64,000 nt of DNA, from positions 682,001-746,000 of the forward strand of contig QPGO01000021.1 of assembly GCA_008632985.1 (NCBI GenBank), read 5' to 3'. The stretch comes from Psammoneis japonica. Its lineage: Eukaryota. Position numbers and translations under genes: made by a program. Shown here piece by piece: positions 14,141 to 59,000 of this stretch (position 1 is the first letter of the stretch; every line of letters starts with the position of its first letter). A model generated the notes under the pieces. The model saw only the letters and a list, made by a program, of their open reading frames with translations. It was not told the origin of the DNA and made no database searches.

Positions 14141-14249
14141 CAATTTTTCCGTGCACGCCTGCTCTGCGGTCCAAATCATTTCGGTTGTTGGCAACTTGTT
14201 GTGATCCTGTCAATGCAGTTTTGCTGTGGGAGTGTCAACAAATGCCGTG

Positions 14250-15700: not shown

Positions 15701-16223
15701 GCAATGTGTTCACCCTGCTCAAATTCTTTCTGCATGTGTCCACAGCAGATCTTCCTCTTGACATCTTCGCATGTCATGTTGGGTGCATCACTGTTCAGGG
15801 TTGAAGAATGGAACTTTATCTCATGCATTGTTCATGGCTTTTCACTTGTTTTCTGCAGTCCCCTGCTGCTTGTGGTGCAAGTGTGAATGGCCTTGTGGAC
15901 TTCCACTGAATCTGTGTGCACTCAACAAGTGCCAGCACCTCTTTGAAGTGAATGCCAAAAATGTGTCCAGTCAAACACCGAATTCTTTGCATGCAAGCTC
16001 TTGAGATTGGTGCAATCGTTGTGTTTCTCGCATCATCGATGGAAAAGGGCAAGTTGGACAACGGGCACGGGCGACGGAGCGACGACCATGATGAGAAATG
16101 ATGATTTGCTGACGTGGAAGCACGACTCGCATTCCTCTTCTGCATCCGCCATCCACAACGTCAGTGCGTGGCAGCGAAGCGAGGAGAAGTGGTCACTTTT
16201 CGTCCAGATAGATTGAGAGAAGG

Positions 16224-33180: not shown

Positions 33181-36100
33181 TGTCAGACCTGACAGAAATT
33201 GAAGGCAAATGGCAAGAATTCAAACAACAACTCCTTGCTGCTGTCTAAACAGCAGATGAGTCTCCACTCAGAGACTGTTGCAGGAGCCGAAAGACGTGTG
33301 AGTCGGTGTGATCGGGCTGCTGTTGTCATTCTTGTGAGCCTTGTGGCTCGAAAGCAAACTGCATCGCGCATGAATGCACGGAACTAAAGCACACAAAACT
33401 GTGTGCGGCAAACTAAACAGCGCGCGACACTTCGCGCGCATCCAAATCCTGTTCAAATCCTGTCACTCCCCAGTTTGCTTGAGGAGCCACAGAAACAGAT
33501 TCGACTTCGGATGGAATGAAGTTCCAGAACATGAGGGGGCGGAGAAGGTCCCAGATTTGGGAGTGACCCCAATGCTTGCTGAGAATGTCAGCAGGGTTGC
33601 GGGAGCCTTCGATGAAGTGGAACTCAAGGCAACCAGAGGCAATTGCCTCACGCACACGGTGGAACGACAGTGCGGTGTGTCGCTTGTGTAACTTGGAGTG
33701 CGGGATGGTGGCACTGTCTACAACCGACTTGTTGTCACCGAACATGTAACCAACATTACGGGTCGGGACGCCAAGGCAGCGCAGGGTGATGCGCAGGTCG
33801 ACAATCTGCTCGACACAATTCCTTGCGGCAACAAATTCAGATCCGCAGGTTGCAGTCTCCACGGTGGCTTGTTTCTTGGAGAACCAATCAGCCGGGAATT
33901 TGTTGAGGAAGTGGAGCATTCCCATGACAGAGCGCCCGGTGAGCATGCAATGGCACAAGTTTGCATCGACGTAGTGGGTGGCAGTGACGAACTTGCCAAG
34001 GGGTGGTGGAGCGTCCTTCGGGATCATCTCTTCCGCTTCACCATACACGGAATGCATCCATTCATGGGCCGGAGCAGGGAGATCCGAACAGTCGGGCTCT
34101 TCCGTGCGAACGCGGAGAGCACCGTGTCGCATCTTGGAGAGGCACCCACAGACGCGTTTGGCACGATCCAAATGGCCTTGGCGGGGCGCAGCTCGGAAGC
34201 TAGAGAGTGACATGACAGCCGTGGTAATGTCAATTCGACCAAGGGACACTGCCCATTGGAGTGAACCAACAAGAGACTGGAACTTGTGAATGCCATCGGA
34301 TCCCAGCAGTTCGGAAGTGTCCAGTTCGGGGTGGTCACCCTTCTCTAGAGGTGACAGGGCGTTGGTGGCAGGTTTCTCCCCAAACAGTCGGGCGTAGCTG
34401 TCGACCATGCGCTCGATGTACTTGCGCGGAGACAGGCACAAGGTTCCGTCGGGGTCCCGGGAAAAGTCGCAACCCAGATGGAACTCAATGGGTCCCGCAC
34501 CCTTGAGCTTGAACTTGCACTTTTCCGTGAGAGTGTCGACGAAAGATTGAGGGTCCTTCATGGCAATGGCGAGGTCATCCACATAAACTGCAATGCATTC
34601 ACAGTGGTCGCCGTTCCTGCGCATCCAAATGTCGGGTTCGGCGCGGCAGGGGAAGAAACCTTCAGCTCGCAGGCAGTCGGCGAAGCGCTCGTGCCAGCGG
34701 AGACCGGAGCTGCGCAGTCCACACAGTGCCTTGTGGATGACAAGGATGTGTCCTTCGAGTTTGCCAAATTCGGGTCCAGCTACAATGCAAAGCTTCTCCT
34801 TGGTGGTGGCTTCAAGGCAGGCATTGCCAATGTCGGTGGCCCATGTCTCCAGCTCGTTGAGTTCGGCCAGGAAAATCATCAGCCGAAGGCCACGGAGGGA
34901 GACTGCTCCGGAGCAGACACTGTCGACAGGTGCGTCCGTGAGGTGCCCGTCGGCTACGAGTCGTGCCTTGTGGCGACCGTCGTGTTTCACGTCGTGCACC
35001 AGGTGCACTCGGTGCATGAGCGCCAGCAGCCATGTGTGGGCGGGCGAACCAAAACGGTCCATGACAGTGTTCGCCATGCGCTTCATGGTCTGGTGTCGAC
35101 GTTCGGCAAAGTTTTGGTGTTGCTGGTGAGGCTCACTTTGCCAGCGGAGACCGGAGCTGCGCAGTCCATGCAGTGCCTTGTGGATGACAAGGATGTGTCC
35201 TTCGAGTTTGCCAAATTCGGGTCCAGCCACAATGTAAAGCTTCTCCTTGGTGGTGGCTTCAAGGTGGGCATTGCCAATGTCGGTGGCCCATGTCTCCAGC
35301 TCGTTGAGTTCGGCCAGGAAAATCATCAGCCGAAGGCCACGGAGGGAGACTGCTCCGGAGTAGACACTGTCGACAGGCATGTCCGTGAGGTGCCCGTCGG
35401 CTACGAGTCGTGCCTTGTGGCGACCGTCGTGTTTCACGTCGTGCACCAGGTGCACTCGGATCTTCTTGTGTCCCGCAGGAGGAGTGGAAGACTTGAAGGG
35501 CCCGCAGTCATGGAAGACTTCGTATTCGTCGAGTTGGTCCATCTCGAGATTAGTTGCGTCTCCCCACTTGCGGTTGCCGTTGCGTTCGTCCAGTGACATG
35601 GCGTGTTTGTAGTTCCGGGGAACTTCGCATCCGCACTTGTAGCGAGGTGCAGTGTGGAAGGAGCGAAGCTTGGCTTGGTTGGCCATGCGAAATGGCTTCT
35701 TTTGGCGCCTCGCGACAGTGCGGAACCACTTCCAGCCATCCGTGTCGAGGAGTCCGTTCTCTCGTGCATAGATGGCACAGGTGACGGGGTCGTCCTTGGC
35801 AATGATGACAAGAGGCTCGGACGTGATCTCCCCACTTTCCCATTCAAGCATGATGTTGTAGCTTGAGCCTTTCCAGGTTGGGTCGTGAGGCTTCAGAGGT
35901 CCTTCGTGTGATGCGATGCGTCGAAATTTCCAAATGGTGGTGTCTTCGTCTTCTTGCTCAATGTGATTCATGATGTCATTGCAGGCAAGGACTTCCTCGT
36001 ATTCGTCATTGTTGACAGAGCAGACGAACTTAGTGAGCTCGGGATTGCCGTTCACTTTCCATTCGTGGTCTTCAACGGCCTTGACGATGCGAGCTCTGTG

Positions 36101-39100
36101 GCGTTGTCCGTCCTCTTGTGGCTGCATGAGGAAGGTGCGTCCAATGATGTCTTGCGGATCGAAAACTGGCATCTTGGGTGTCCTGATCTCCCCATCAGTA
36201 GAATCGACGGGGTTGTCGTCATGGCGAGATTTGATGATGGGTTCAGGTGGCTCCCCATCAGGAGGATCAAGACGCAGGTTTCGAACGGCAGGATCGGGGG
36301 CAGCGGAGCGAACGTTGGACCGGCAGAGGATCTTCTGAGTCTCGTCAGATAGGATCTTGAAGGTCATCTGGTGGCCGACGTGCTCAGCAATGCCAACAAA
36401 GCGTCCACGCAACTCACGGGATTCGGACGGCCAATCGGAGTCATCGAGGTGGAAGCACACTGGTTCCCACCAGTGAAAGCGAAGCAATGGGCTGATGTCC
36501 GGGGTGGATCCAGTGAGAGTCTCGAGGGGCATGCGCCAGTGGAGACGTGGGGACGCTGTGTGGTTGAGCATGAAGCACACGTGCATGAGCACCAGCAGCC
36601 ATGTGTGGGCGGGCGAACCAAAACGGTCCATGACAGTGTTCGCCATGCGCTTCACGGTCTGGTGTCGACGTTCGGCAAAGTTTTGGTGTTGCTGGTGAGG
36701 CTCACTTTGCCAGCTGGAGATGAAGAGGGCGCGTAGGATCCCGAGCACTTTGTTGCTGATCTCAACTTGAGCACGGTCGCTAATGAGTTTGGATGGGGCA
36801 CCACGTTCACGGATCTGATCCTCGAGTGTGTTGACAAACTCTTTGTCCGTCTTGGTGCCGCAGACGTCAGTGACGGTAGACTCGGTGCCAACAAACAGTT
36901 GGGCGCTGGTGCAACCAGAGTCGACGGCCGGGGTGTCGGCACAAACGGTGTCAGTGGCGACAGGCTCGTTGCGGCGGTGCACATTAAGGGCGGGGTTGGG
37001 TGATTTGCAGGCCTTGCGAAGGTGTGTACCGGCGGGCATGCGGGCGCACTGCGTGGTGCAGTCAAAAGTACGACGGACCGCATCGGCAGGTAGGAAGCCA
37101 AAGCAAGGCCGAAGAGACTCGAAGGGGGGGTCCTTGGGCTTTACAGTGCGCTCCGGAGGTGGAACGTCATCGCCCTTGGGGTCAATCGCATGCAGATGAC
37201 ACTCGTAGAACACGTCGTCGTTCGGAATGAGGTGATCATCGAGGGCGGACGCGTGATCGGCAGACAAGGAAGCAGACAAGATGGTCTCGTTGACAACGAC
37301 ACGGTGACGGCAGTTGCCGCATTCGTCAAACAGGTTGGCAGTGGGATCGTCCTGCAGGTCAGAGATCGCGTCGCACCACTGGTCGTCGTCAGTGACAGAG
37401 TGATCGAGGACGGAAGGGTCCCATGTGTCATCACCGGAGGATGACATGGGGCAGGGTGTCCCATTCGGCGTCAGTGCAAGGTCGCATGGCAACACAAGGC
37501 AGGCCAGCCTTGATGTCAATGGGGATGACACAGCCATCAGGAGTGGCAATGCGTTGCAAGCCGTTGGGCACCTTGACAGAGCGATCGTTGACATCCTGTT
37601 TGCACCATTCGAGCTGGCCGCAGGAATGGATGGTCTTGCCCTTTCCCGTGCATGCGCACTGATGGAGGATGGCGATGACGGGACCACGCTGGGTCTCAAT
37701 GACGGCACCAGCGGTGACAATGGGGATGTCCACCAATTGATGATCGTCAATGCCCTGAACGTCGACTTGGCGAGAGGTGCGTGCAATGACGCGAACGTCG
37801 TCGCCAGCAATGCCGCCGTTGGCCCCACGATCGACTAGAGTGCCCGTGCGTGTGGAGCGATGAGCAGAGGCAGAGCAAATGACATTGTGGTTGTCAACNN
37901 NNNNNNNNNNNNNNNNNNNNNNNNNNNNNNNNNNNNNNNNNNNNNNNNNNNNNNNNNNNNNNNNNNNNNNNNNNNNNNNNNNNNNNNNNNNNNNNNNNNN
38001 NNNNNNNNNNNNNNNNNNNNNNNNNNNNNNNNNNNNNNNNNNNNNNNNNNNNNNNNNNNNNNNNNNNNNNNNNNNNNNNNNNNNNNNNNNNNNNNNNNNN
38101 NNNNNNNNNNNNNNNNNNNNNNNNNNNNNNNNNNNNNNNNNNNNNNNNNNNNNNNNNNNNNNNNNNNNNNNNNNNNNNNNNNNNNNNNNNNNNNNNNNNN
38201 NNNNNNNNNNNNNNNNNNNNNNNNNNNNNNNNNNNNNNNNNNNNNNNNNNNNNNNNNNNNNNNNNNNNNNNNNNNNNNNNNNNNNNNNNNNNNNNNNNNN
38301 NNNNNNNNNNNNNNNNNNNNNNNNNNNNNNNNNNNNNNNNNNNNNNNNNNNNNNNNNNNNNNNNNNNNNNNNNNNNNNNNNNNNNNNNNNNNNNNNNNNN
38401 NNNNNNNNNNNNNNNNNNNNNNNNNNNNNNNNNNNNNNNNNNNNNNNNNNNNNNNNNNNNNNNNNNNNNNNNNNNNNNNNNNNNNNNNNNNNNNGAACAA
38501 AGAGGAGTCGTTGGCAACGTCAAGACCCTTGTGTGCTTTGACAATGTACAGGCCAACTGGTGCTGCTAACATGTTCTTATAGCCACGGGGCAAAGGGATT
38601 GCATTGGTGCCATTGTCGCACTCAAGCGAGTCGATTTGGGACGGTGTGAACGTGAACAGTTCCTGGTGCGAGTCCGTGCCGTCTTGGGCCAAAGCCAAAT
38701 GAAGAGGACTCCCAGCACCTTGAGCAAGCACGGTTCCAACAACGTGCTCGAAACCATCGGTTTGTTGCTGACGAGTGAGAACCATGGCAGACAAAAGTGG
38801 TGTCAGGACAATCAATTCTGGTTGGGAAGCGAAGGCAGACTCGAAAACTTGGATGAGAACAGACTTGACTTGAAACAGACTTGACTTGAAATCTTGAACT
38901 ATCTTAAAATCAGAAGTCGCCGGGCTTTGTCATCCCGTTCGTTGTCAAGTGCTAAACTTCCTGTCCGGTCCGCAGAGTTGTGCCGGCACGTCCGAACCCG
39001 CAGCTGGCGGCACTTTGGGTTGCTTGCGAGCGGAGCAGCGGGTTGTAAACCCCTGCAGGTGAGCTGACTAGAGGTGGACAAGACCCCCGAACCGTTCTTA

Positions 39101-40001
39101 TTTTACATCGGTTGGATTTCCCGATCAGGCTGGCCAGTTGACGCAGGCGTCAGGCGCTGTGGATGAACGAACAAACGTGGGAAAGCACCCTCGCCCCAAC
39201 GCAGGCTGCAATCATGGCCACTTGCTCTCACAGTCGTCCTCGTGGACCTAGCAGAACTGTAGAGCACCAGTAGTCCGGGGTAGATCAGGTACAATGGACT
39301 CGGTGTGCTTGTAGAGTGGCAGCAAAACCGCAGTCCGAAGAGTGGGTACAGGTTCTTGGCCGTGAAGATATGTATATATATATATGTCTTCAGCAACGAA
39401 GATCCTTGAATATGTAGGGTTCTTGACCGTTAACCGATGAATAGGTATATCAAGGGATGAGGATCAAGGATAGACTTGGATATGACCGTTGAATGTATGT
39501 CTTCAGCGATAAAAGGTAGTATAATCAATCCAGATATCCAGCGGTAAGGAGACTTGACGGTGACGTTAACTTCCTGCCGATGCCCTGGTATTGAATGCGC
39601 GTAGACTTGCCGATGTATGTAGAATATATACGGAGGTCCACGTAGAATTGAAATAGCGTCGTTGGTAAATCAACGACGACGATGGCGGTTGCTCAATGGG
39701 TTGACAATGAGCAAGACTGTTAATCTGACAGAAAATGAAGGCAAATGGCAAGAATTCAAACAATAACTCCTTACTGCTGTCTAAATAGCAGATGAGTCTC
39801 CGCTCAGAGACCGTTGCAGGAGCCGAAAGACGTGCAAGTCGGTGTGATCGGGCCACTGTTGTCATTCTTGTGAGCCTTGTGGCTCGAAAGCAAACTACAT
39901 CGCGCGTGAACGCGCGGAACTAAAGCACACAAAACTGTGCGTGGTAAACTAAACAGCGCGCGACACTTCGCGCGCATCCAAATCCTGTTCAAATCCTGTC
40001 A
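33181..40001 (-). mobile_element. Ty1/Copia (diatom CoDi-like) LTR retrotransposon, mutated, spanning an assembly gap
   Basis: ~285-bp LTRs at 33181-33465 and 39718-40001; PPT GGGGAG; gag from ~38785; protease ALVDRGANGG; integrase DRAQVE..NFAERR; RT KARLVADG, YVDD; RNase H NPADILSK; frameshift at ~37435. No matching TSD seen. Confidence 0.92.
37899..38494. other. Assembly gap (596 N)
   Basis: Run of N. Confidence 1.
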
Positions 40002-41190
40002 TGTCTGATCACTGAATCTTGTTCAAACTCTGTCACTCCCCAACTTTCTGATGATGCAATGGGCAGGCCCCAATTGCCTGCATTCTCGAGATGCTCAGCA
40101 GGCAAGTCTCGAGACTGCTGCCAATCTGACAGAAATCCATGAAGACTTCTTGGGGGACGTTTCAGATGACCACCAACAATTGAGGACTGCTCATTTGTTG
40201 GCACTGTTTGCCATGCAGTGTTGTGCCTGTCGCTCTCATGTCGGCTGGCAAGCAGAACTCTGGCCCGGACCCTTTTCACCGGCTTCGCTGAAGGCCCTCA
40301 ATGAAGGGGATGAGACGTCTGCTCGGGACATGCACACTGGTCCAACCAGGTTGAAGTGCCTGGACTTGTGCCCATCATGCGCACCCCATGCACGGGTGAC
40401 ATGGAAACACGCAGAACATTGCATGCTTGGGTGGGACTCGAACCCACGACCCTCCTTGCCAAGGTGGAACACCTGGGCCATCTGGGTCATGCACTCATTT
40501 GTCTTTTCAGGCCCACTGCATTGAAGAAAGCAGATCATCTGATCACTGAATCCTTGGATTCCCAGGCAATTCAACCTGGTTAGACCGGCGTGTGTGTCCC
40601 GAGTGGACGTCTCATCCCCTTCGTTGAGGGCCTTCAGCGAAGCCGGTGAAAAGGGTCCGAGCCAGAGTTCCGCTTGCCAGCCAACATGAGAGCAACAGGC
40701 ATGACACTGCGTGGCAAACAGCACCAACAAATGAGCAGTCCTCAATTGTTGGTGGTCATCCAAAATGTCCCCTGACAAGTCTTCACAGATTTCTGTCAGA
40801 TTGGCAGTCTCAAGACTTGCCTGCTGAGTCTCTCGAGAATGCAGGCGATTGGCGCCTGCCCACTGCATTATCAGAAAGTTGGGGCATGACAGAATTTGAA
40901 CAAGATTCAGTGATCAGACAATCTGCTTTCTTCAATGCAGCGGGCCTGAAAAGACAAATGAATGTGCAATCTAGATGGTCCAGGTGTTCCGCCGTGGCAA
41001 GGAGGGTCGTGGGTTCGAGTCCCACCCAAGCACCGCAATGTTCGGCGTGTTTCTGTGTCACCCGCGCATGGGACGTGCATGATGGGCTCAAGTCCAGGCA
41101 CTTCAACCTGGTTAGACTGGCGCACATGTCCCAAGCGGATGTCTCGTCCCCTTCGTTGAGGGCCTTCAGCGAAGCCGGTGGAAAGGGTCT
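40002..41190. mobile_element. TRIM-like miniature LTR element (LTR ~450 bp, internal ~80 bp) in inverted and tandem arrangement, with a tRNA-like segment in the LTR
   Basis: 40002-40355 is the reverse complement of 40570-40920, and 40355-40545 of 40921-41100; LTR termini and PPT match the neighbouring Copia; T-arm GTGGG-TTCGAGT-CCCAC at 41009-41025. Confidence 0.7.
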
Positions 41191-41192
41191 GA

Positions 41193-42805
41193 CGGGTTCC
41201 AGTCCCAGGTGGGACTCCGTGTGACATTGGGCCCGCAGAATTCTGCGTGCGAGCTCTGCAGTGCGAGAATTTGATCAATGGATGTGTTTGTCTTCAACAT
41301 CAAACAAACGGCCAAGTTTGTGGTGCAATTGTGCCTCTTGCCACTCAATGTTTTTGCAAATGCGCCTGCCCTGCGCGATTCTTAAGACATCATAGAATCG
41401 CGCTGTGGCAAAAAATGTCAAAAGTTGTTGGAAGGATCGCTCAACAAGTGCACCGTAAAATGGCACAAAATGTTGAAAAAATCACGTAGAAATCTACGTG
41501 CGCGACATGCGACGTGATTCAAAAAACTGTCGATGTCACAGTTCAGTGGTGCGAGGGCGGTCCCACCTGGCAGACCTGGAATGCGTCGTCTGGGCCAGAG
41601 CTCTGCTTGCCAGCCGACACAAGAGCAACAGGTGTGATGCTGCGCAGCAAATGGCGCCAACAAACAAGTGGTCCTCAACCATTGGCGGTCATCCGAAATG
41701 TCCCCTGAGAAGTTTTCACAGATTTCTGTCATTCATCATCATCACTCTCCTCATCATCCTCGTCATCGTCGCTCTCACCCCCGTCTTTTCTTTCATCGCT
41801 TTCATCCTGAAGCCATTTGCGAACTGCTTGTGGCATTCATCGTGCAGATGTCATTGGCGGGCCTTCTCATGACAATTTCAGGTCAGGACGGGTTCCAGTC
41901 CCAGGTGGGACTCCGTGTGACATTGGGCCCGTAGAATTCCACGTGCGAGCTCCGCAGTGCGAGAATTTAATTGATGGATGCAACATCAAACAAACGGCCA
42001 AGTTTGTGGTGCAATTGTGCCTCTTGCAACTCGACGTTTTTGCAAATGTGCCTGCCCTGCGCGATTCTTAAGACATGTAGAATCGCGCTGCAACAAAAAA
42101 TGTCAAAAGTTGTTGGACGGATCGCTCAATGAGTGTGCCGTAAAATGACACAAAATGTCGAAAAAATCACGTAGAAATCTACATGCGCGACATGCGACGT
42201 GATTCAAAAAACTGTTGATGTCACAGTTCAGCAGCACGAGGTCCCACCCAGACCTGGAACGCATCCCCAGTTCTTTTTCCAGAACTTGCAAAATTGTGCC
42301 CAGGAGCTTGTTGGTTTGTCTTCTCCTTCGACTGGCTCCGTCTTGAGAAACTTTCCTTTGCAGTTCAATTTGAGGGTCCAACCATTTTTCTTGTCCGCAG
42401 ACGTGTTCCAGATGCACCGACAGGTGGGAATCCATGTGACGTTGGGCCAGTGGAATTCTGGGAGCGAGCTCCACAGCAAAGTCATCAGGCAATTTATGTG
42501 TCAATGATCGCCAACAGAAAATGAGGCAATTTTGCGAATGCACAAACTCGCCTGTGATTAAAGCACATCATTTTCCACTTGGCCAGGTGCGTTCTTCAGA
42601 AATTGAAGAATGAACCTGGTGTGTTTGTGTTCCCATGCACAACTTCTTTGAACAAAATGTCTGGGGTTTTGCAAAACAGCAAGTGTGGAACAATTTTTTG
42701 GAAGATCGCATGCAGAAATGTGTGCGCGAAACATGCAACGGATGACAAAAAGCAATTGTGTCACATGCCAGTGCTGCGAGCTCCCACCTGCTGGGCCTGG
42801 AACGC
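41193..42805. mobile_element. Three ~370-400-bp MITE-like elements (41193-41585, 41889-42262, 42402-42805)
   Basis: Imperfect TIRs GTTCCAG..CAGGTGGGA / TCCCACC..CTGGAA; the first two are highly similar direct copies. Confidence 0.65.
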
Positions 42806-42999
42806 ATCCGCATCGTTTGTGCAATCCACTCTTTTTCACGGTGGGAGGTGAGTTCTCAAGCCGACACCTGTCTCTTCTCCAACCAGTCTCGTTGCACATG
42901 GCACAGAAAGTTCCTTTGTGTCATCAAAACATGCGTGAAGCACTGCACACATTTCGGGTGCAAGAAGCATCTTGTTTGCATTCTGCCCAGTCTTCCCTT

Positions 43000-45570
43000 T
43001 GAGACCATGTTTTGGAAAGATGTTGCTCTTTCCCTGCTCATTTTTCATGAGCTCCAATTTGCACAGAAGCCACATGCTGGTTTCTGTGCATTTGCACAGA
43101 TTTTGCACCAGCCGCATTGCAGGGCGGGGGTGTTGTTCACCGGCCCCAATGAACTCTTTCTCTGACAAAATGAATCTCTTGATGGACTCCTCACATGGTC
43201 TCCCAAGCTCTGCACAGACAGTGTCACAATCGGCCCGGGAACCAATCCCTCCAAATCAAAGGTTGACCTGATGCCTTGCATGGACAAGAGCAAAGCCAGT
43301 TCCATCATCAAGCACTGCCCTCAGAAATGTCCTCCCACCAACAAAGGCCATCTTCTTCTAAAACGTAACACACAAAATGCCGCAGCCGGCAAGTGTTGCA
43401 AGTTGGTGACTGACCAGGGTTGCGGCATTTTTGAGTGCTGTTGTCACAAAGTTTGCAAGCCAAAGTGCTCAAAATCCAAGCCATTGAAGAAAACAAAAAA
43501 GAGTTTGGGAATGAACTCTTTACAAACTGCCAAACGTCAGGCAATTGGCACTGTGGGTCAATGCACAATGACAAGAAGCTCAGCCGAGGTTGCACCATGC
43601 AGAGTGACGGCAAGTGTGCCACAACAACTCTGCCCATTCACAAAGAGCACTGATGTCAGTTTTGCTTCATGATCAAGTTCCACAATTTTGGCAATCTGGA
43701 AGATGGGTGCTTCCACCTGCTGTGCGGTCATGGTTGTGGCACCCACACTTTTCACACATGCCCAGGCAGTGGTGATCATGTGACGCAGTCTCTGTCTCAG
43801 TTGTCTGGAGAGACACTGGATCTGGAGTGATTTGTTGTTTGATGCATCACATGATCAATGAAATCGTCACCCAATCTCAGGTCCAGCGCCTTCAGTCAAG
43901 ACTGCAGTCTTCTGTCTCTGCCATCAAGTCATCCTTCTCTGACAAGTTGCTCAGGTGCATTTGTGTGACAGGCATCAATCACTGTCCTTCACAGCCTTGC
44001 ATCACTTGGTTGATTCTCAGTTTGTGAAGCATTGCAAGGGCCGTCCTCCAAAGGGCAGCTGCCATCCATGTTGGAGATCAGAAATGATCTCGCTGTGAAC
44101 GTGGAACCCACTGTCAACAACTGTGTTGCAGATGCTGATGACTGCATGCCTGCCTTGACCGGCTGGTCCTCTGGGGATGACTCTGATGATGACAACAATG
44201 ATGATGCGGAAAACAATCTGCAGCACACGCAAGGCTTCATTGAGTCAGATGTTGCAACAGGCCAGGTGGTCTCATCCAAGGTGGTGCATTTTGGTCCACA
44301 TCAGCCGGGTGCAACAAAGCATCAAGCCACATGATGAGAACAATTGCCTCTTTCATTTGCGTTGTTGCGTGAGGCACCGCGACGAGTGCACTGGGACTCC
44401 CAGGGAAGGCATGGACAAAGCTGCAAAGAAAAGCAGTGCAGCATCAAGACCCAACATGAACATGGACACATCCGCCAAAGCCATGGAGAATCAATCACAA
44501 ATGAAGAAACATGAAACCAAAATGAAGAGAGCACGTGACTTGTGCGCATCAAATTTGTGGGTGAAGACTGGCCTTGAAGGCAAGGTTGTGAACCTTGTGG
44601 AGCAACTCACAAAAACACAAGTCCTGCAGTCTGTCAACTGCTGCATTGCCCAAACTGGTCCATCAGAGTGCTTGTTTCTTTGCAAAGGGGTTTTGGTGAT
44701 GCAAGTTTACCCAGAACATGTGATGTCCTTCCACGTTTCCATCATTTACGTCATGTGACCAAGACACCCAACAGTCATCTCATTTGTGATTGTGGATGCC
44801 ATCATCACCATGGCATTCTGTGTCACCACACCATTGCCACATCTGGTGCTCCTTCTCTCCATGACATGTCTGTTGGGTGGCAAAAAGAACACCAGTGCTT
44901 GGCTCATGAGGACGGGTGCAAAGACATGACAGATCTGTTTGAAAGATGCACAGACAGCGAGACCTCCATGCAAGGTTGCAACAATGACACCCTGCCATCA
45001 CAATGTCCTGAGCTGAACAACCTCTGTCATGCAGACTGTTTGGCTTTGGAGTCATTCAACGAAGCAAAAAACTCACCTGTGCCACTTTGCTTCAATCACC
45101 CCATTTCCACATGTGATGGCAAGCCATCCAGCAATGAAGATGGCATGATCATGACCCAGGAAACATTGACTCAAGATTGGGGTGACAACAATGATGATGA
45201 CCAACTTGGAGACTCAACTCTCATGCTCAACATGTGTCACCGTGACCTCAAAAACCTTGCAAATGGGGAACCAGAGCTGTGCTCCATTGCACAGAATGCC
45301 ACAATTGAAGCCACTGGCAGGTGCAAACACAAAGTCATTGAATTAAATCCCAATCACTCGTCTGCAATGCAGAACTTGGAAACAGTCTCATCTGCAGTGG
45401 GAGTGTCAACTCATCTACAATCGAAGCGATGCAAAACCCGCAGTTGGAGGCAAGAGCCAATCACACATCCAAATCACTTTTGCAAAACTGGGAGTTTCTT
45501 TTCCTTTTCCACACACCACATGCACAACCAATCATTCACCTGCACATCCACCAACCGGTGGGTGTCATAG
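43000..45570 (+). mobile_element. Decayed SWIM-domain (MULE/Mutator-like) transposase remnant
   Basis: HLICDCGCHHHHGILCHH matches SWIM CxCx(n)CxH with Y->C/H changes; lies between TIR-bearing modules; no intact ORF. Confidence 0.45.
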
Positions 45571-46867
45571 AACCAGGAGCTCCTTTTCAGTCTCTGCAAA
45601 GACAGAACACAGCCAATTGTTCACAACAACGTCTGCAGACACTTTGACATCACTGGACTCGAGTCAGGTGCACCCACTGGAGTGAACAAAGCTCTCAACA
45701 CATTCACCAGAAGCTTGTCCTGATGGGAATTCAGCATCTTTTTCAAATCAGCTGGGTCCATGCACACACCAAAGCAAGGGATCTGATGCAGATTGGATCC
45801 CGAACGGTGACATCACAGTCATCGGTCCACACGCGACACATGGCGACACCGCCCTTCATCACCAAGGACACAAGAGCATTGGTGTGAAAGCACAGGTTGA
45901 AGAAACGTCCATCAGTTGATGATGAGTGACTCTGATGGATCTTGCACATCAAGTTCTCATCACAGCAACACTTCCACCCCAGTCCTGACATGAATTGCCA
46001 CCTTCAAATGCTTCAGCATCTGCTGTGTTGAGACGGAGGCCGGCACCTTGCACCCATCATGCAGAGCCATTGGATTGGTTTCGACTTGTCCACAAACACC
46101 TCTGTTGAGCTGCACATGGGAAAGGTGCCAACTGGGGTGTGAGATCCAAGCATGTGCATCACTCCAAGATCACCAACTTGATCAAACTCCTTCGCAATGA
46201 CAGGAGCCAACGTTGTGCAAGCCTCTTTCTTCGATGCAGCTGACTTGGAGACTTGGTTGTTGGTGGGACAGGGCATGGATGCTGCCAACAATCACATGCA
46301 TGAAGAATGGCATTCAAGCCATTTTGGAATCTTTGGTTTCTTGTGCTGGTTGCAGCAACGTTGTGGTGCCAAAGGCAATCCAGTGCTCCGCACTTTGTTG
46401 TCAATGGCCTCCATCAAATGCAGGATGAGAGAGCTGAGGCTGAAACCATGATGGCGAGCCTTGCTCAACTTTGGTTCCTGCAGCGTGCAGTGGATGGCTG
46501 CACAGAAATGATGCGTGGTGTTGGGAAAGCATCCTTGCGATTGTGCGAGTGAAATTTTCTTGGGCTGGGTCAAGCTCAGCTTTTTGTCAAGCTTCAACAC
46601 ATGAGAGGAAGCAGATGCAGTGAAGCCACTGAGATCAAAATTGCACTGCACCTTGGTGCAATCAAAGCCAGGGACACAATCCACAGCAACTCCCTGGGCA
46701 AGGTGTTTGTGATCCAGGTGACATTGCAACTCATCGGACTCGAAATGCTTCTCGCACCATGATTGGCATGTTGCTGATGTTGGTGCACTTTGGAGTCAGC
46801 CGAGAAAAGACTCAGGCGACCAAAACCCAAACAAACAAGATGCTTCCACTTGCCATTGAGCTTCAGA

Positions 46868-47263
46868 TGTGTTCCAGCTCCAGGTGGGACCTCACACTGC
46901 TGCGCTGCAACATCAACAGTTTTTTGGATCGTGTCGCATGTCGCACATGTACATTTCTACATGTGACATTCCACAAAATTGTTTCATGCTCCCCATTTTG
47001 CGAAGCCAAAGGCTTTCTGTTTTCAACATTTGTGAGAATGAAAATGTGCTGGGCATTTTCTTCAATGTCTGTAGAATGTGCCCGGGCAAACTGTCAATGA
47101 TGTGCTTCAAGTGTGAAGGAGGGACACATTTGCAAAATTGCTTCTTTTTCTGTTGGCGATCATTTGCACTTTTTCATCACTTAAAACAAATTTGCTGCGG
47201 AGCTCGCACACAGAATTCTGCCGGCCCAATGTCACACAGAGTCCCACCTGGGACTGGAACCCA
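46868..47263 (-). mobile_element. Fourth MITE-like copy, inverted relative to those at 41.2-42.8 kb
   Basis: Ends GAGTCCCACCTGGGACTGGAACCC, the reverse complement of the 41889 start. Confidence 0.65.
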
Positions 47264-50200
47264 TCTTCACTGGTCCAGACAGAGACGCAGTCAATGCATG
47301 ATTTTTTGCTGGGAGGGATCAAAGAAGTTGGGATTGTGTTTGTCGGCATGTGTCAAAAGGGGGGCATCTTCATCGGTGATGCCAAAGTGACCAGCAGGAA
47401 AAATGCCACCAGGAAACAATTCTCTTGCACAGAGACCATCGGATGGGATGCGTTCTTGTGAGAAAATGCCGACTCTCCATCGGGAACAAATTTGCAATTT
47501 CATGACTTTGCACAATCAGACAATGTTTTTGTCATCGCTTCTGAACAGTGGGGTGACAAGTGTGTGGCTCAACCATCCACGCAAAAGGAATCTACCGCCA
47601 TTGCACCCATGAGTGTGGCAATGTCAGTTTTCACCAATTTCAAAGAGACAGGCTTGGAAGCCTCTTTTCCATCATTGTCTGGGGCAGCCCTGTCAGTTGC
47701 AACTGCTGATGCACCAGAAAATGGCATGGAGTGGTGACCGGCAATCATGGAATCCATGCCGGCCTTCTTTCCAACTGGGGACACCACATGATCCAAAGAT
47801 GATGCAACTGCAGACCTCTTCCTTGGCAACAATTAAAAGTCAGACTCTCTGGCTGCAGGGCTGTCCATTGCAGCAAGCACCAAATCAACACCAGCACCCA
47901 AATCAAGCAGACCACCACCCCACAAGCCATCATCGGCATGGACCTTCAACGACTCTCCAGTTGGCACCGGATCCACTGAGACATCTTGCACAAGTGAAAC
48001 TTGGGGGAAACCACCAAAGAGGGATGAAGAGAAGGAGAGCAGGAAGAAGAAAGCTTCTTCACAACCAAAGCAGCAGAACATTCCAACTGACATGACATGG
48101 TGGTGACAACAACACAAAAATCCGGTCTGTGACACAGCAGCAAAGATGCAACAGTGTCATGAGCAAATGAACAAAGTGACGCTGGAAAAAAGGAGAGAGC
48201 ACTTGCTGATGCAGCACTCACTTAAATGCCGGGAGCAGCATTGTCACTGCAAAGCCAGGCCAGTCGTTGAGCATCAAACAAGGACAGAACACAAACAGAA
48301 AGCAAAGTGAGAAAATGGGAGGCAACGGGTGCACAAGCAGCAGCAAGCACAAAGCAAAACAAAAAAGAACACTTGTGGCAGTGTGAGTGTCATTGTGGGA
48401 GGGACCAACATGAGCACATTAAGAGCTGAGCAACATGCCGTGGAACAAGTGTTGCAGCAGCAAAGGGAAAAAAGGATTCATTGTCACATTGCATTTTGTG
48501 AAATTCTGAACGGCATTGTTGAGAGAACAAAATTTGAAAAACAACAGTTGGAAAGGTGTTGTGTTTCTAAATGTGAGTGATGAACATTGTGGTGCTCTCA
48601 TGCACACAGATGTTGCAATGAAAAAGACATCAGAAGCTCCATCAGACAGAAATGCACAGGGTGAGAGAAGGTCGGGCAGGGCAAACCTGACTCACCAACA
48701 TGGGGGACATTGCACAGGTGCAGATGGGATTTGTTTCATGATGGCTGGCACATGACTGCCAGCTTGGTGGAGCTGTCACAACGAAACTTGTGAAAACCGA
48801 TTCTGAAGAATCCGGGCGCTGATTCTGAAGAATCGGATTTCTGTTGTTGAACGCCAAATTTGAGCTCAACGTGCATGCTCAGTGGACAATTCACAAGTTC
48901 TGCCATCCTGTTTTCTTGAGAGTTGAAGTTTGATTCTTGAGAATGGCTGTTGCTGATTTTTAAGAAAACTGCTCATGTGTGACGCATCTACAAATTTGAC
49001 ATTGCAACGTCTGTCAATGAAAATGAACAATTGGCAATTTGAGCACAATCAATTTTTGCACCGACTTCAAAATTGTGAAGGACAATGGTGGCTTCAGTGC
49101 AAAGAAGCAACATCAATCAAGACATTGTGATGAACATTGCAGCCTTGTGCAACAGAGCATGGCTTGCATCACTTGTGAGAGTCTTTCTGTGCTTTGGAAG
49201 CTGTTTCGGAGTCGAAAATGCTGTCAAAAACACTCTTGCTCGATGTTGTTGTTGTGCTCTTTCAACCAAAAAAAGCAATGAAGAAGTCAATTCTTCTCAA
49301 ATTGTTTGATTCATTGACATGTGAGCTGTTGACACACAACACATGGTTGATGGTTGGGGCTGTTGATTGACTTCTCGTCGACAATGATCGCCATTTTGTC
49401 TGTAGATTCATGTGACAGATTTTTCACAAGAGTTCCATTTTCACAAGATTCCAATTGGTGGCACAAGGTCCAATTCTCAAGAATGGATTTTCACAAGATT
49501 CCATGCAGGATTCTGTGGAATCTGGAATCGTCGCAACAGAGCCAAATTTCGTGCCACAAAGCGGGCGCTTGTTTCAAAGTCAGCACACAAGGAGGTGGTG
49601 GCCAAGCCAGATCTCTAAAACACATCAATGACCATGTGAACTAACCCAGATGCAGCAGATTCAACAGTGTTGTTTGCGTGCTCAGTTTCTTTTAGAGCAG
49701 GGAGTCAAAAAAAGGCACAAAATGAGGTTGCAAGAACTTCGCACTTTTTGAAAGGGGAGAAGCCACCAAACAAAATCATTCACAACAAGCCTGTCTGTTT
49801 GCACTGAAAAAGTTGAACAACAACCACAGACAAAAAATGCCATGGCGACAATGGCTTTTTTTGCCACAAGGCAGAAATTTGGTGCTCGTGTGGGCGGTCA
49901 TTGTCGTTGCTGTGTTGGGAGGGTGCTTGCTTCTCTTGTCTGCTGTTTTGTCATGGTTTTCCCTGCCATGCTGGTGCTGGAGCTTTTGACAAAATCTCAT
50001 GGAGTGCTCCAAGCCAGTGACATCCACTTTTGTGTGGCAGCAATGACTCCAGAGTGTTTGGTTCATGCTCCCCCCCCCCATGTTTTCACTGACCCATCTC
50101 CTGGCTCACAAAAAAGTGCTCTTGTTCTCATCTCTGGTGGCAAGTGGTCTCTCCAGGCAGCTCATTGCAGCTCTTTTCAGCTTTGTTGCTCCTCTGAGTT

Positions 50201-52024: not shown

Positions 52025-54583
52025 TGATTGGAATGTTCCACTGTAACATTTCCTTGCGACTCGAAGTCCGGGAGTTTTATTGTCCCTCCACTGCTCTCAC
52101 GATCTATGTGGTTAACTTTTCGTATGATAGAACTTTTAGCAAAAACTACAACTACCGTATGGATACAGTATGTCGGTTCCTGCTGCAAGGTGAATGTAAA
52201 AAAGCAAGACCGCCCTCGAGATCTCCCGCCCCCCACACATGCATACACACAGCACTGCGTCATTTTCTCTTTAGGCCCTGTCAATGACTTAATGCTGTAG
52301 TCCTGTGTATTTAAATTTGGCATGCGATGGCAGCAGCAGCTTGAACTTGAGTCAAACAAGCTGGGAAGGGAGGGAAGAGTTGCAGACCGAACCATCCAAG
52401 TTCTCGTCTCCTTTTTTAATGCTTGAGCTCCTGCCTTCTCAGCAGCACAAGAAAATGCTGAGTGTGTTGCCCAAGCAGGTCAGCAGCTCAATCACCAAGC
52501 CCACCCAAAAGATCTGCCCCAGCACATGCCACCAGGGGCATTGCCATGCTGCAGCACAACAAGCTTTGCAGCTGACAACCACTGGTGCAGACCTGATGAG
52601 GCACTTCACATTTTTGTTGAAGTTGCCAAATGGAGTTCAATTTGCTGGCACCACACATGTGGCAGCCAGCCATGTTGAAAGAGCAAAAAAATCTTGCAAC
52701 AGTGTTGAGCACTCTTCTTCCACACTTTTGTGCCTTGTGCAAAAAGAGAAAGTTGTTCATGAGGTCAAAAGAAAGATCACTTGAAAAAATGATCAAATGA
52801 GGCAAACTTTTCCCGCACATGGCTTGTGTTTGCCACTTGCTTTGAGGAACTCCACAGCACACTTTTTGAGGTTTTCTGAGACATCTTGTCAGCAGCAGCT
52901 TCAAGACATGCATGGTGAAAAGACCCCCCAATCATTTGCCACAGTGCTGCTGTCTGTCCTCTTGTCAGAAAGCCTTGTTTGCTTGCTTGCTGTGCTTTGC
53001 ATGAGATGGAGTTTGAGCCATCTTCTGTTTCCAACATTGATGGTCATTGAGAGTGTGTGGCCCACAACAACTTTGCTGAGGGAGAGCAAGTGAGTGAGGT
53101 GCGGCAAGCAGTGGCAACATCCCCTCAGCTGAGTGTGCATGAGCTGTCCACATCATGTGTGCTTGCAAAATGGGCAAGCAGAGCATGCAATGAAAATGAG
53201 TGCAAGCCAGCTTTCTTTGACACCGGTGAATGTTGACCATGCAGCGCAACTTTGTGCTCTGATGATGCAGGTTTGGATGTGAACATTGGCCAGCACATTG
53301 AGCTGCTTGTGCAGGTTTTCACTGCCAGGCACTGAGAAGCCCCTCAACAACCAAGTGCAGGACTTTTTCCCTGGCCAGAGGTGGGAAGTTCATGATCCCC
53401 TCCTGTGCTGCATTTTTCACCAACCTTGTGGCCCTTCTTGCAGCCTCATTTTTTTGCAGAGCATGAGTTGCTGTCCACAGTGAAGCACAGGCCTTGACCC
53501 ACCTTTGCTGCCAGCATGACTTGAGTGGCCATGTGTGTTTGTGGTCTTTTTGTGGCGTTGACATTGCGACGTTGCTTGGACAATTTGAAGTCATGTCGCC
53601 AAGCCACATTCTGGGGGGCCACACTGTTCTTTGTGACTCGTCTGGTGCAGGCAGTTCTGCTTCTTTGTGCTTCATTGAATGAGGTCCTCGTATGACGATG
53701 ACAGCTGGGGACAAGGCGCTGCATGCAATTGGGATTCTTTTCTCTCTCGCACCAGTGGTGCTCCAGTTCTATCTACACCCTTGCCATTTGTTGTCGCTTT
53801 TACGTTGAGGATGGTGATGCAATTGCTGAAAGGCTCAAAGAGAGCGAACACTCGAGTCAAAGCAGTTTGAATGTCGATGAGGTGGACTCGAGTGAAGGGA
53901 GGAGCACAAGCGAGGACAGGGAAGAAAACGTCTTGTGTGCGGACAAAGAGGAGAATGAATCATTGTCTCATCAACGGAGCCACAGAAGGAATCGACATAA
54001 GAGAACTGGGCGGAGCTCGTTGTTCACTACAGAGTCCATGAGAAACATGCGTTTGAGTGTTACATCCATTCGCTCAAGCTTGAACCAGTCCGTGCTGGCC
54101 ATGACAGAAGGGATGAAAGATGCTCTAGATCCATGGTGTCATTCTGAAATTGTTTCTTGACTGTTTTTTAACTCAGAATCAGGTGATCGGGATTTCCCAT
54201 CCTCGTTTGCTGGCTCAGCTGCCGCAGTCCTGTTGCATTTCTGTGGTTGAGTGTTTCACGTTCGCACCATGAGTGTGCATTTGTGTTTGTGCATTTTTAA
54301 ATGGACCAAGTGGTTTTGACAATGAGAGAGAACGCGAAGAACAGTGGCTCGAAGAAAAGGACTCTGAGCATCTAAGTTCTGAAATGTCATCACTCCACAG
54401 ATTTTCTTGTTGGATTGGAACCCAAGATGACCGCATTTCGAAGCTCTTCTCATTGATTTCCAGTTGGCGTGTCTCCTCGAGAAGCTGCAGCTCTTCTGCT
54501 TTGGCAGTGAGGCACTCTGTGCATTCAATGATCTTGGGACAAAAGCGAGAAGGTGTCATCAGCCATTCACCATGATCAAGTCC

Positions 54584-56040
54584 TCAAAACACAAAAACTC
54601 CCAAGTTGCCCAATTCACTTGTCTTCGTATCTTCAAAGTCCCGCACAGAAAATCCATGTGATCGCAGGTGGGACTCCTGAACATCCGAAGGGGCCAGGCG
54701 GTTGTTGCCACTCAGGAAGATCACGCATGGTTTCTTGCCAATGTCCTCGACGAAGAGGTTGCCTCGTGCCCACGAGAACTGACGCTGGATCGCCCATTTC
54801 ACCATCACATCCAAGCGAATGATGCATGATGCATCACCCGGATTTGGGAGATGGCAAACAAGACGATGCGTGAGAGCCGCACTGCACAGACAAAAACACA
54901 CTGGATCAAGAAAAACCAACACCGCAACAAAACTTGGGGTGCACTTCACAATGTACGAGACAATGAAACTCCCATGGGAATGGCACTGAAATGTTGCTTT
55001 GTGATGGCCATGATGGGCCAACATTGCAGTGAGAGAAGCGGCAACCTGCCTGGGAGACTGCACGGAGCTGGGCATGACCCACGGTCGAAACGCAGATGCG
55101 GTCGCTATTTCGGGAAGGAAGATCAGACGCTTGGCACGAAGAAGCTCCAAAACAAGAGGAACACACATTGCAACACCCAATCCAATGCCGTGAACAAACA
55201 CAATGGGAGTTTTTTGTTCTTCATCGTCGTTTCCTGGCTTTCCATTTGGGTTGCAGCAGCATGACGTGGAACAAATCACGTGTCTGCGAAAGCCAAGCCA
55301 CCACATCACCAAACGAAGCACAACCTCGGCTGGTGCGACAATGAGGACATGTAAAAAAAGAGGAAAAAGCTTGATTCCCAAAAGTGGATCCGAAGTTGGG
55401 CGAAGGTGTCGTTGGGCATTCGGGGGAGATGAGTGACATTCCTCTTGCTTCTTCTCTTCATTTCCTTCCTCGTGCAGTGCTTGATGACATTCTGTGATTT
55501 GTTGCATTGGGTCTGCCAGTGCAGATGCAGGAATGTCATGCGACTCTGGCACAAGTTGTTCCAGCAGCCTTCTAAATCCTCTGACCCTCAGCAGCTTCCC
55601 TTCGTCTCCTTTTCTACCTCCAGAGCCCGCATCATCGGTGTCGGAACCAGGCACTGAGGCGATTTGCGATTCGCACTTAAGGTCACCCAGGCTTGCCAAC
55701 GGTGCATTGCTTGGACGATGTGAAACACCATTGCCATCCCCTCGATTGATCTTCTGCAGAACTTGTGTTGTACGAACATGTCGACTTGCTTGTGTTCACG
55801 GTCAAGCAGATGTTCTTGGCTCCTCCCATTGAAGAAGCCCCACGCAATGAAGTTTCTCAGGTCGTGCAGTGCAACACTGTCAACATCTACATCATGAAGC
55901 CATCGTTGAAAATGCTCAGCGACGCTGTTCTTTTCTGCTTTGAGGACACGGTCCCAGAGCAAGATTCGTTCCTCCATTGGCACGATCGGCGCTGCTTGCA
56001 ATGCAGCTTCCATTGGGCACATCGACTTGAGGCACGCAAA
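54584..56040 (-). pseudogene. Hypermutated host alpha/beta hydrolase pseudogene, 5'-truncated at a LINE tail
   Basis: PIVFVHGIGLG, CHSHGS (GHSYGS-like elbow), FLDPVCF; frameshift at ~55700; Tyr almost absent. Confidence 0.7.
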
Positions 56041-59000
56041 TTTCAATTCAATTCAATTCAATCTTAAAATTTGCGCCGCTGCTTTCAGCAGTTGCCTGAG
56101 GCTTGGTCACGCCTGATTCTTCCTTTCAATCCACAACCATGGAATGGAGTCAGAGCGTCGTTACAAAACACATGCAATTGCGCTTGATGGGTCGTGGAGC
56201 GCTAGAAAACTGCACCCATTTCTGTCATTGGTCAGTTTGTAGTGAGGGCAGTGACCGCACGTTTTGCTGTTTCTACTGCCGCAAGCCAGTGTCTTTTGAA
56301 GTCCATGTCTTTGGCGTGTGCCTCCTCCATGGACTTAGAAAACCACCTGGCGCACTGGGGCAAATTGGAGGGGTGATCAAAGAATGCTGCATGTTCATTT
56401 TCAATCCGTCCATCGAGGATGCTGTTGACAGTGAGTCTTGATTCAGAGGTTGGAGATGCGGCCGCTTGCATTCGGTGTTGCCACATGTCCCATGCCGCAC
56501 TCCACAGTTGTTGGATGAGACCTGCTGCCCATCGCTCTCCTGTGTTCCGGTGCTGAATGAATTCGCAGTGCGCCTGTTGAGCTGCTGCCCACTCTGTCGC
56601 TAGGAATCCTCGCACCAAAGAGTGATCACCAAGTTGCTCTTGTGCTGTGAATGCCTGTTGCACCTGTGGGTGGTCTGATGTTGGTGCAGGGCAAGGAATC
56701 TCATCGTGCCAGCTCTTTGTGATTCGCATGATGCCCTTTCTTAAGTCCGGATGAGTTGAATGATCCGTCATCCACTTCTCCAAGCTTTCACCTTTTTCTG
56801 CCACAGTTCCTGCGCCGCTTGGGCCTTGCACTTTAACACGTGGTCTGTCCCTTTTTCATCCTCCCCACATCTCGGGCATGCTGCACTCTCCACTTTTTTC
56901 CCTTGATGCATGTTGTCATTCGTGGGAACGAAGCCTGTGTTCCACTTTGGTTGCCACAGTTGTCGGAACGTTGGGCACCTGTGCATTGCTCGTCCTGGGG
57001 CTTGCCAATCGATGTTCACATGTGTGTGCTCAACCTTGAGCTTCTTCTTCCAGCACTCTGTTGCAGACGGACCACAAATGTGATCGAGGACCCTTTGTTC
57101 TTTCCACGAAGTCATCGTTGTGTCACGCAGCCTTGCCGTCCAGATCGGTTGGGCAATTTCACACGGAGAGGCACCTTCGTGCTTTCGTAGAGCTTCCCAG
57201 CGTGCCTTTGCTAAAAGATCCATTTCAACATTCAGTTGTTCGATGCAGGAAAGTTCTTGCAGCGGCACTCTCTGATCCTCATGGCCTTCCACCTCGATGG
57301 CCTCCACTGTTGCAGGGAGTTCCTGAAGCATGCTCCTGACAGCATGAATCAGATCACAGTTGGTGAGAGATGGTGCGTTGCATGAATTGTGAAAGCACGT
57401 TCTTGGTCCAAGATCGCAGTCACATGCCAGCATTGTCTTCCCACTGCTGATGTTGTGCTGTTTGCACAACCTTTGGAGAAGTGCCACAATGCCAAAGACA
57501 CCTCCCAGTTCCCCTCCATAGGGTGCAAGGTCTGTGGCATCCCCCGGCGTCTGGTTCACTCCCTTGTGCCGGTGTGAGTGTCCTTCGCTGGGTGGCAAAA
57601 TCATGCCCGCAGTTGCCAATCCTTCTTTGTAAGATCCATCTGCAACACTCAAGGCCGTCCCTTGTTCAGTTCCGTGAACCAATGCAGACAAGTCCGGTTG
57701 GTGTCCGTGCAGAATGAACGACCAGCCCACATTGCTGAGAGCTCTCCCCGGATCAACCGCTGGCTGGATCTGTGCTGTTCCTGTTTGCATCATCCTGGGA
57801 CTGTTCCTTGTGACCTGAGCAGGCAAGGCGTCCTGAGGCATGACGTTGATGGCGCCATTTAGTTGACGCCGTGGTCGTCTGTTCTGTCTGTTCTGAGGTG
57901 TTCTTGTGTGCAGTGCAATTTCTTCCTTTTCCTTGCAGTGCACTCTGTCGTCTAATTCAGAATGCCACCACGCTGTTGTCGGTTCTTGCATCCAATGTTC
58001 GAGTGGTCTTCGTAGTCGGAGTTGTTGATTCCTGCCCATTGCAAGAAAGCTTGTTGTCAGCGCTTCCTGCCAAAGTCGCCAACACGGTCTAGAGGGGTGC
58101 CCTGCCTTCGGCCAGTTGTGTGTTGTCGGACATGTGGCTGTGCCATGCCAATGATCCGGGAGAATCCTGCTGCTGTCTCCTGACACTACGTCCGACAGCC
58201 GCACTGCTTTCAGCCACATTCAACACAGGTTAATCTTTCTTGGATGGTTGCCTTTGCAGCCATGTGCTTTGAATGCTTCCATCAAGTGCTTGTCATTTTG
58301 CTGCAGTGGAGGAGTTGTGGTTGTCGGAGAGAGCAATTCAATCGAGTGCGACGAACAAAAGTGCCAAAGCGATTTGATCCATGTCTTTGTGACTAGAATC
58401 GCAAATTTGTTGCGTTCCAGTGAGAAGATTTTGTCTCCTTGCCCGAGTTCAAGTGCCATGGTCTCACACACATGTTGCATTTCTCTTCCTGTCATCAACG
58501 GTGAGTCGATTTGTTGCAAAAAGACAGCCACTTTAGTGATCCCCTGTTTCACAAATGGTTCCGACAGGCCCAGTCCATTGAATCGTTTGGGAGCGAAGAG
58601 AATCCTTTTGGGGAATGATCAAGGGCACCCCATTGCCAGCAATGCCACTTCGTGTGGCGGTTTCTCTGTTCTCTGGCATTCCGCTTTTGTTGGAGATGCA
58701 GCTGCCAGTGGATGCTCAATGGATTTCACAATGCCGCCCATCAGAGAGAACCAGGCCTCCGTTCTGTTGAGATGTCCGCATCACACTTGATCCGCCCATT
58801 TGCCCACTTTGATTTCCATTGCCTCCATCTGAGCATCCGAGTTTCCGTCTAGTGCGATGTGCACCCCCAGCATTTCTCTCGCTTCCAATGCTTCCATCCT
58901 CTCTGCTGTTGTCCTGTTTCCCTCGTGATCCAGTGGGGTGATGTTGCCTGGTGATTCCTCCTTGCTTTGATGCTTCCAGCGGTCATTTTCCCACTTGAAG

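Follow-up and report, generated by a model that had tools for sequence, protein, structure and literature searches.

A candidate Helenus-type TRIM present as a single head-to-head pair beside a Copia element

Among the non-autonomous LTR retrotransposons known as TRIMs, Helenus elements carry tRNA-derived sequence in their LTRs and have been described from fungi, animals, and Selaginella (Kojima 2024, PMC10886601). According to the part of that paper available to us, they are about 311 to 1263 bp long, make target duplications of 4 to 5 bp, and include some families with fewer than 10 LTRs; fungal Helenus elements use anticodon-loop primers, tRNA-Asn among them, make 5-bp duplications, and depend on Copia. 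The same part of the paper describes Cassandra as having a 5S-derived LTR promoter, validated Pol III transcription, tandem arrays, and an unknown helper, and gives it as the only one of these TRIMs for which Pol III transcription from the LTR has been validated (PMC10886601).

Here, we analyzed a window of 64,000 nucleotides, i.e., the whole stretch of DNA. An earlier note had proposed that positions 40002-41190 hold a tRNA-bearing TRIM of convergent, Cassandra-like design. The idea is not new, because tRNA-bearing TRIMs have already been published as Helenus/TRIMp3, as the available part of Kojima 2024 (PMC10886601) makes clear. We conclude that the locus probably holds a TRIM of the Helenus/TRIMp3 type, a non-autonomous LTR retrotransposon of about 975 bp, which is present at one site as a head-to-head pair whose like ends were most likely co-inserted.

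Two short elements in one insertion site

Self-comparison of the window revealed that 40002-41190, previously taken for a single unit, consists of two TRIM copies in opposite orientations: positions 40562-40920 match 40363-40002 as an inverted repeat with 89% identity, and 40904-41189 match 40552-40268, also inverted, with 88% identity. Each unit comprises an LTR of ~443 bp, an internal part of 88 or 91 bp, and a second LTR, about 975 bp in total; the LTR starts with TGACAG and ends with TTTCTGTCA. The parts are as follows.

40002..40035, minus strand: minus copy 3' LTR, first 34 bp; the other 408 bp are at C61:1637-2044
40036..40126, minus strand: minus copy internal part, 91 bp; primer site with a 3-bp duplication, PPT at 40038-40049
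40127..40552, minus strand: minus copy 5' LTR, first ~14-18 bp missing
40553..40561, no strand: inversion junction with a short fold-back, 6-bp arms around TT
40562..40798, plus strand: plus copy 5' LTR, 3' half, 237 bp; end TTTCTGTCA at 40790-40798
40799..40886, plus strand: plus copy internal part, 88 bp; primer site 40799-40810, PPT 40873-40884
40887..41190, plus strand: plus copy 3' LTR, first 304 bp; LTR start at 40887
41191..41587, no strand: MITE in the plus copy 3' LTR; abundant, with an apparent 4-bp duplication GTCT
41592..41731, plus strand: plus copy 3' LTR, last 140 bp, ending in TTTCTGTCA

Both outer ends of the pair are U5 ends, and both copies are U3-incomplete or interrupted by insertions: the plus-copy element extends past the MITE to 41731, and the minus-copy element continues onto another contig, C61. 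The internal parts carry a primer site and a PPT only. All four LTR copies found are parts of the two short units, and none flanks a coding region; on this ground, we rejected an origin as LTRs of an autonomous Copia. The proposed layout of two LTRs around a short internal part, as opposed to the LTR of a full-length element, therefore holds for both units, which are short and non-coding inside. The PPT does lie ahead of the LTR start (40873-40884 and 40887, respectively). The LTR end had been misplaced; the true end is TTTCTGTCA, and GATTGGCAGTCT is the primer-binding site, outside the LTR. The internal part is short, as had been said, but measures 88 bp (plus copy) or 91 bp (minus copy) instead of ~80 bp. 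A GCAGGCG/CGCCTGC hairpin described there is perfect in the plus copy only, and we reject it as a feature because the internal parts fold no better than shuffles (z of 0.03 and -0.71). A tandem array is not what we see, since the copies are inverted.

The MITE, of ~390 bp with imperfect terminal inverted repeats, is abundant; it occurs in the window at 41191-41587, 41887-42265, and 46866-47265 and matches many of the fetched loci.

The element that follows the pair on the other side is a Copia.

33190..40001, minus strand: Copia in the minus copy 3' LTR; 5' LTR 39726-40001, 3' LTR 33190-33465, assembly gap 37899-38494
39711..39725, minus strand: Copia primer-binding site; pairs over 15 bases with the tRNA-Asn(GTT) anticodon arm

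Its domains are in the order protease-integrase-RT-RNase H, with an RVT_2 match at an E value of 2.9e-36, and its RT-RNase H part matches 1642 database proteins at E<=1e-50, most of those among the matches listed being 66-75% identical. The family, which may be of the diatom CoDi type, is abundant in the assembly (365 primer-site and 902 LTR-start matches). The Copia adjoins the TRIM because it inserted into the TRIM LTR. Contig C61 begins inside a Copia (C61:1-1636, closing with AGACA, after which the rest of the TRIM LTR follows), and the 408 bp missing from the minus copy 3' LTR lie directly after this Copia 3' LTR, with AGACA on both sides. The flank of the window's Copia at its 5' LTR, AGACA, equals the 3' flank at C61:1632, whereas the window's own Copia 3' flank is GGTCT. 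Because these flanks mismatch, whereas each of 7 Copia LTR pairs examined at other sites is flanked by a matching 5-bp duplication, the sequences on either side of the gap 37899-38494 probably belong to different Copia copies that the scaffold has put together; a real translocation in place of a mis-join is possible. The locus thus flags a probable scaffold mis-join (or translocation) through Copia between the window contig, C23, and C61, and we connected the two by sequence logic, not by reads. The Copia pol also has internal duplications (34692-35438 and 36581-36714) through which the frame stays open for 1473 codons, either a real rearrangement or an assembly artifact.

The outer flanks identify the insertion site.

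41732..41736, minus strand: 5-bp target duplication ATGAA; second copy at C61:2045-2049
41737..41886, minus strand: host repeat, target of the TRIM pair, ~13 genome copies; resumes on C61 from 2050

One host repeat is split between the two flanks, half of it in the window and the other half on C61. Among 12 paralogs of this repeat, 9 span the junction with a 5-bp overlap, containing a single ATGAA in 8 cases and a variant in 1; the remaining 3 are too diverged for alignment at the junction. These empty-site paralogs show that the TRIM pair sits inside one 5-bp target duplication. The check for 5-bp duplications that the earlier note had suggested thus found ATGAA on both sides of the pair, one flank being on C61. 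The host repeat (window 41732-43300, minus strand, and L103:2045-2790) has an acidic-coding stretch followed by what appears by eye to be a decayed DDE transposase-like part.

In DNA and pattern searches of the 91-Mb assembly, every TRIM match belongs to this locus: the DNA searches gave 5 matches each, all there, and the pattern searches gave 2, 4, 2, 3, and 0 matches, none elsewhere. The same search recovered its positive controls (365 and 902 matches to Copia motifs, 13 to the host repeat, and 240 to a second TRIM). With matches at a single locus in the 91-Mb assembly, a family spreading through the genome is not supported. None of 30 examined primer-site loci (of 365) had a B-box or was followed within 1.5 kb by another LTR start. 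A metagenome scan for a primer site, short gap, and PPT gave one match (L127), which has neither an LTR pair nor a tRNA and is unrelated, and the viral contigs scanned for the TRIM gave none. Summed contig depth in run X1, which is not a copy number and probably comes from the same sample as the assembly, is 0-300 over the TRIM vs >100,000 over the Copia LTR and the MITE. The TRIM moved at least once; today, it is a single-locus fossil.

The tRNA-like piece and the candidate helper

Similarity to tRNA was detected in the LTRs of both copies.

40423..40493, minus strand: tRNA-like piece in the minus copy 5' LTR; A-box and B-box/T-arm; 28.4 bits, E 3.9e-7 (rough)
40963..41033, plus strand: tRNA-like piece in the plus copy 3' LTR; A-box near 40967-40983, B-box 41012-41022; 19.8 bits, T-arm part only

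The B-box and the A-box-like motif that had been pointed out are present (GGTTCGAGTCC at 41012-41022 and AGATGG at 40973-40978), and the distance from A14 to T54 is 41 nt, compared to 38-41 in 30 short tRNAs of the genome. A covariance model, made from 22 of the 30 first-fetched tRNA loci (short class only) and run unfiltered over 73 kb, bore out the tRNA likeness: the three LTR pieces rank 1, 2, and 4 among 16 hits, with 28.4, 22.6, and 19.8 bits vs 9.8 bits for the best unrelated hit, rank 3 being another tRNA-like TRIM. With a sequence-only model, they are ranks 1-3 of 11 hits. A tRNA likeness above chance is thus supported. No complete tRNA is apparent: ARAGORN found none in the window, the Rfam scans, with clan overlaps hidden, listed no tRNA and matched 18 bases of the T-arm to tmRNA (11.3 bits, below gathering thresholds), and cloverleaf folding is absent from the pieces. 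Comparison with 40 tRNAs points to no particular parent isotype; the best local alignment scores are 46-50, close to the 44.5-47 of the shuffled best. In a three-way LTR alignment, 0 of 28 columns vary in the T-arm block vs 45 of 244 elsewhere, a post hoc comparison in which another 25-bp block is equally invariant. Our reading is that the LTR piece represents a decayed, putatively tRNA-derived promoter module rather than a tRNA gene.

This piece may once have served as an internal Pol III promoter. Because the boxes are well spaced and the T-arm is invariant, yet no T4 run exists, we consider putative Pol III drive of the TRIM to be evenly balanced between true and false; the sense strand has no T4 terminator in any of the three stretches examined, which leaves the end of any Pol III transcript without an explanation. 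A single decayed locus is a poor system for testing such drive. A Retrozyme was also considered and rejected, since Rfam scans at E<=10 found no hammerhead or other ribozyme family in the LTR, a search whose sensitivity is lowered by hypermutation; the LTR fold has a z of 0.36.

Other tRNA-like sequences occur in this genome. A second, unrelated TRIM in the window (59640-60092, minus strand; ~450 bp, 110-bp LTRs, 4-bp duplication ATGG) has a tRNA-like piece of 20 bits within its internal part, and its T-arm motif has 240 genome matches. On contig C310, there is a cluster of divergent tRNA-like genes with Ala/Thr anticodons (L137, at C310:36819-37328, L134, and L041), one of which ARAGORN calls Ala(GGC).

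The termini link the TRIM to the adjacent Copia family. As had been claimed, the two have ends in common: 19 of the first 21 LTR bases and all of the last 9 are identical. Outside these termini, blastn found no match between the TRIM LTR and internal part and the Copia, and the two internal regions are alike only in the primer site and PPT. The primer site forms 12 pairs with the tRNA-Asn anticodon arm in the plus copy, two of them G:U, and 9 pairs in the minus copy. A PPT is present in both TRIM copies, and both TRIM and Copia make 5-bp duplications. Termini, primer site, PPT, and duplication length all point to this Copia family as the helper, in keeping with the proposal of a Copia parasite, and it is likely, judging from these sequence features, that this family, or one closely related to it, mobilized the TRIM in trans. 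The TRIM RNA would have been packaged and copied by the resident Copia, with reverse transcription primed by the 5' half of tRNA-Asn and the second strand started from the PPT; the Copia integrase, reading the common terminal bases, would then have inserted the product. A self-made primer finds no match here: over 7 or more bases, the tRNA-like piece is complementary to nothing within the first 32 bases of the internal part; a lone 7-mer complement to the piece lies near the LTR end.

Alternatively, the element might be a conventional TRIM transcribed by Pol II, or might have arisen once by deletion from a Copia that has since been lost; the tRNA or SINE fragment in its LTR would then be a passenger with no role in transcription. 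The missing isotype match and T4 terminator and the single locus fit such an origin, as does an LTR of ~443 bp, longer than every Helenus LTR reported in the part of the paper at hand (323 bp; PMC10886601). Both boxes are nevertheless kept at tRNA spacing, the T-arm block is invariant (with the post hoc caveat and the second 25-bp block noted above), and the internal part matches no Copia internal sequence except for the primer site and PPT; on this evidence, we regard a passenger fragment as unlikely.

It is far less probable still that the tRNA likeness arose by chance or that the inverted layout is an assembly artifact. The ARAGORN and Rfam gathering thresholds are unmet, a gap and a mismatched Copia duplication lie nearby in the scaffold, and the inversion junction, with 31 letters on each side, is unbridged among the Logan contigs listed. 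Against this stand the E value of 3.9e-7 (rough) with a 10-bit gap to the background, and the divergence of the arms, whose difference of 11-13% means that one did not arise from the other by collapse or mirroring. The intervals 40432-40568, 40804-41024, and 41558-41807 are covered by Logan contigs with 0, 3, and 5 differences, respectively, though these contigs probably come from the same sample and hence lend no independent support.

Decay and origin of the inverted pair

Identity among the TRIM LTR copies is 78-89% in the longer pairwise comparisons, and each LTR pair shows only 0-4 transversions, over 34-407 columns. Between the two minus LTRs, 42 of 45 transitions are at pyrimidine-purine steps, which make up 48% of positions, and the observed/expected ratio of TpA in the TRIM unit is 0.06. 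Because transversions are few and transitions fall mostly in pyrimidine-purine steps, the LTR copies appear to have been near-identical once; CpG/TpA hypermutation would then have decayed all four. In the repeat-rich parts of the window (14001-16000, 40001-50000, and 54001-64000), TpA observed/expected is 0.04-0.14, with an excess of TG/CA, vs 0.5-0.8 in gene-like stretches; differences between Copia LTRs are likewise nearly all transitions at pyrimidine-purine steps. In Bigelowiella natans, the part of the preprint available to us (bioRxiv 10.64898/2026.01.13.699255) reports TpA-targeted hypermutation in integrated viruses, established by mutation accumulation. As in that case, TpA is depleted and TpG/CpA in excess in foreign or mobile DNA; unlike with the B. 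natans viruses, the pattern here is read from composition and LTR comparisons in transposons.

How the pair arose can be viewed in two ways. In the first, two like (U5) ends would have been co-inserted, after which the free U3 ends would have been trimmed and then joined; Copia and the MITE later inserted into the two 3' LTRs. We favor this course over template switching, giving it about an even chance of being correct. Concerted integration of separate short donor ends, with the integrase holding ~20 bp per end, is described in the part of PMC11054761 at hand. One Copia elsewhere (C9:633529-642524; L139 and L107) carries an inverted 174-bp U3 piece after its 3' LTR, and a single 5-bp duplication, CGTTG, encloses the whole, which has a U3 end at either side. 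Among 4 Copia pairs checked (C1, C9, C12, and C41), it is the only like-ended one; a further pair, on C39, is a direct repeat. Head-to-head Copia pairs as a common arrangement were rejected, since the pairs on C1, C12, and C41 have their own duplications and are independent insertions.

In the second, the pair formed after insertion, when a template switch at the 8-bp inverted repeat of the LTR ends swapped the U3 tip for an inverted copy of most of the element. The LTR start and the reversed LTR end do have 8 bases in common, the minus copy is short of only its first 14-18 bp, the inversion junction contains a fold-back, and the same two primer-site changes occur in both copies. In yeast, a model in which short interrupted repeats give rise to inverted amplification has been tested (PMC4689423, in the part available), and the Copia on C9 is compatible with post-insertion switching. 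Four dinucleotide sites group the two 5' LTRs vs the two 3' LTRs, pairing arm with arm, and none group otherwise, which leans toward duplication after insertion or arm-to-arm conversion. Conversely, such a switch needs the outermost termini, which lie ~975 bp from each other, and not the two ends of a single LTR, which are nearer; a star-like pattern with no grouping lean (11/10/8) is seen in the 5' half of the LTR; and at four single columns, the copies fall into the opposite grouping. We therefore see post-insertion switching as a tentative account that falls clearly short of even, and co-insertion remains our preferred reading.

A wider claim can be built on co-insertion: that the Copia integrase inserts two like ends of separate cDNAs in vivo (U5+U5 for the TRIM and U3+U3 for the C9 Copia), owing to the 8-bp inverted terminus common to U3 and U5, and leaves an inverted element in one 5-bp duplication, and that the TRIM is a parasite driven by Pol III, with a helper that can be recognized from the termini. 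Taken as a whole, this claim is doubtful. Either way, the like-ended inverted insertion would be a footprint of two-donor integration in vivo or of template switching at LTR termini. A literature search by title and abstract opening, with most subscription journals outside its coverage, returned no diatom TRIM and no like-ended LTR insertion.

Comparison with Helenus and Cassandra

The locus consists of short, non-coding two-LTR units with a primer site, a PPT, tRNA-derived A/B boxes, and a duplication in the 4- to 5-bp range, as expected of Helenus. Helenus elements form dispersed families, whereas all assembly matches here are to this one locus; families with fewer than 10 LTRs are also known in Helenus, according to the available part of the Helenus paper (PMC10886601), on which the following comparisons draw as well. 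Like Helenus, the TRIM has tRNA-like A/B boxes in both LTRs and only a primer site and PPT inside; it contains no functional tRNA, and its tRNA-like piece is not complementary to its own primer site. It resembles the Copia-dependent fungal Helenus elements, one lineage of which uses tRNA-Asn, in its 5-bp duplication and anticodon-loop primer site. It differs in its host, which is probably a diatom vs fungi, animals, and one lycophyte, in its LTR of ~443 bp vs at most 323 bp, in an A-box that has no TRGCY motif, and in occurring as an inverted pair at one locus. Its LTR termini are common with those of its helper, unlike in the fungal Helenus pair, which share internal sequence and not LTRs (PMC10886601).

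No diatom, stramenopile, or oomycete term occurs in the Helenus paper, so far as its available text goes, and the available supplement names none of the three diatom genera or Phytophthora, which we looked for (PMC10886601). Our findings would thus extend Helenus-type elements to a probably-diatom host. Through its termini, primer site, and duplication length, a Helenus-type TRIM is also linked here to one particular, abundant Copia family, a pairing that is only indirect in the Helenus paper, to judge from the part at hand (PMC10886601).

Cassandra itself was considered and rejected as an identity for the element, which has no 5S match at E<=10 and whose copies are inverted, with no tandem arrays. 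Like Cassandra, the element is a TRIM with a small-RNA-derived putative internal promoter in its LTR; unlike in Cassandra as described in the available part of the paper (PMC10886601), this putative promoter is tRNA-derived, and the copies form an inverted pair. If the helper is indeed identified by its termini, this TRIM would provide the link that is missing for Cassandra.
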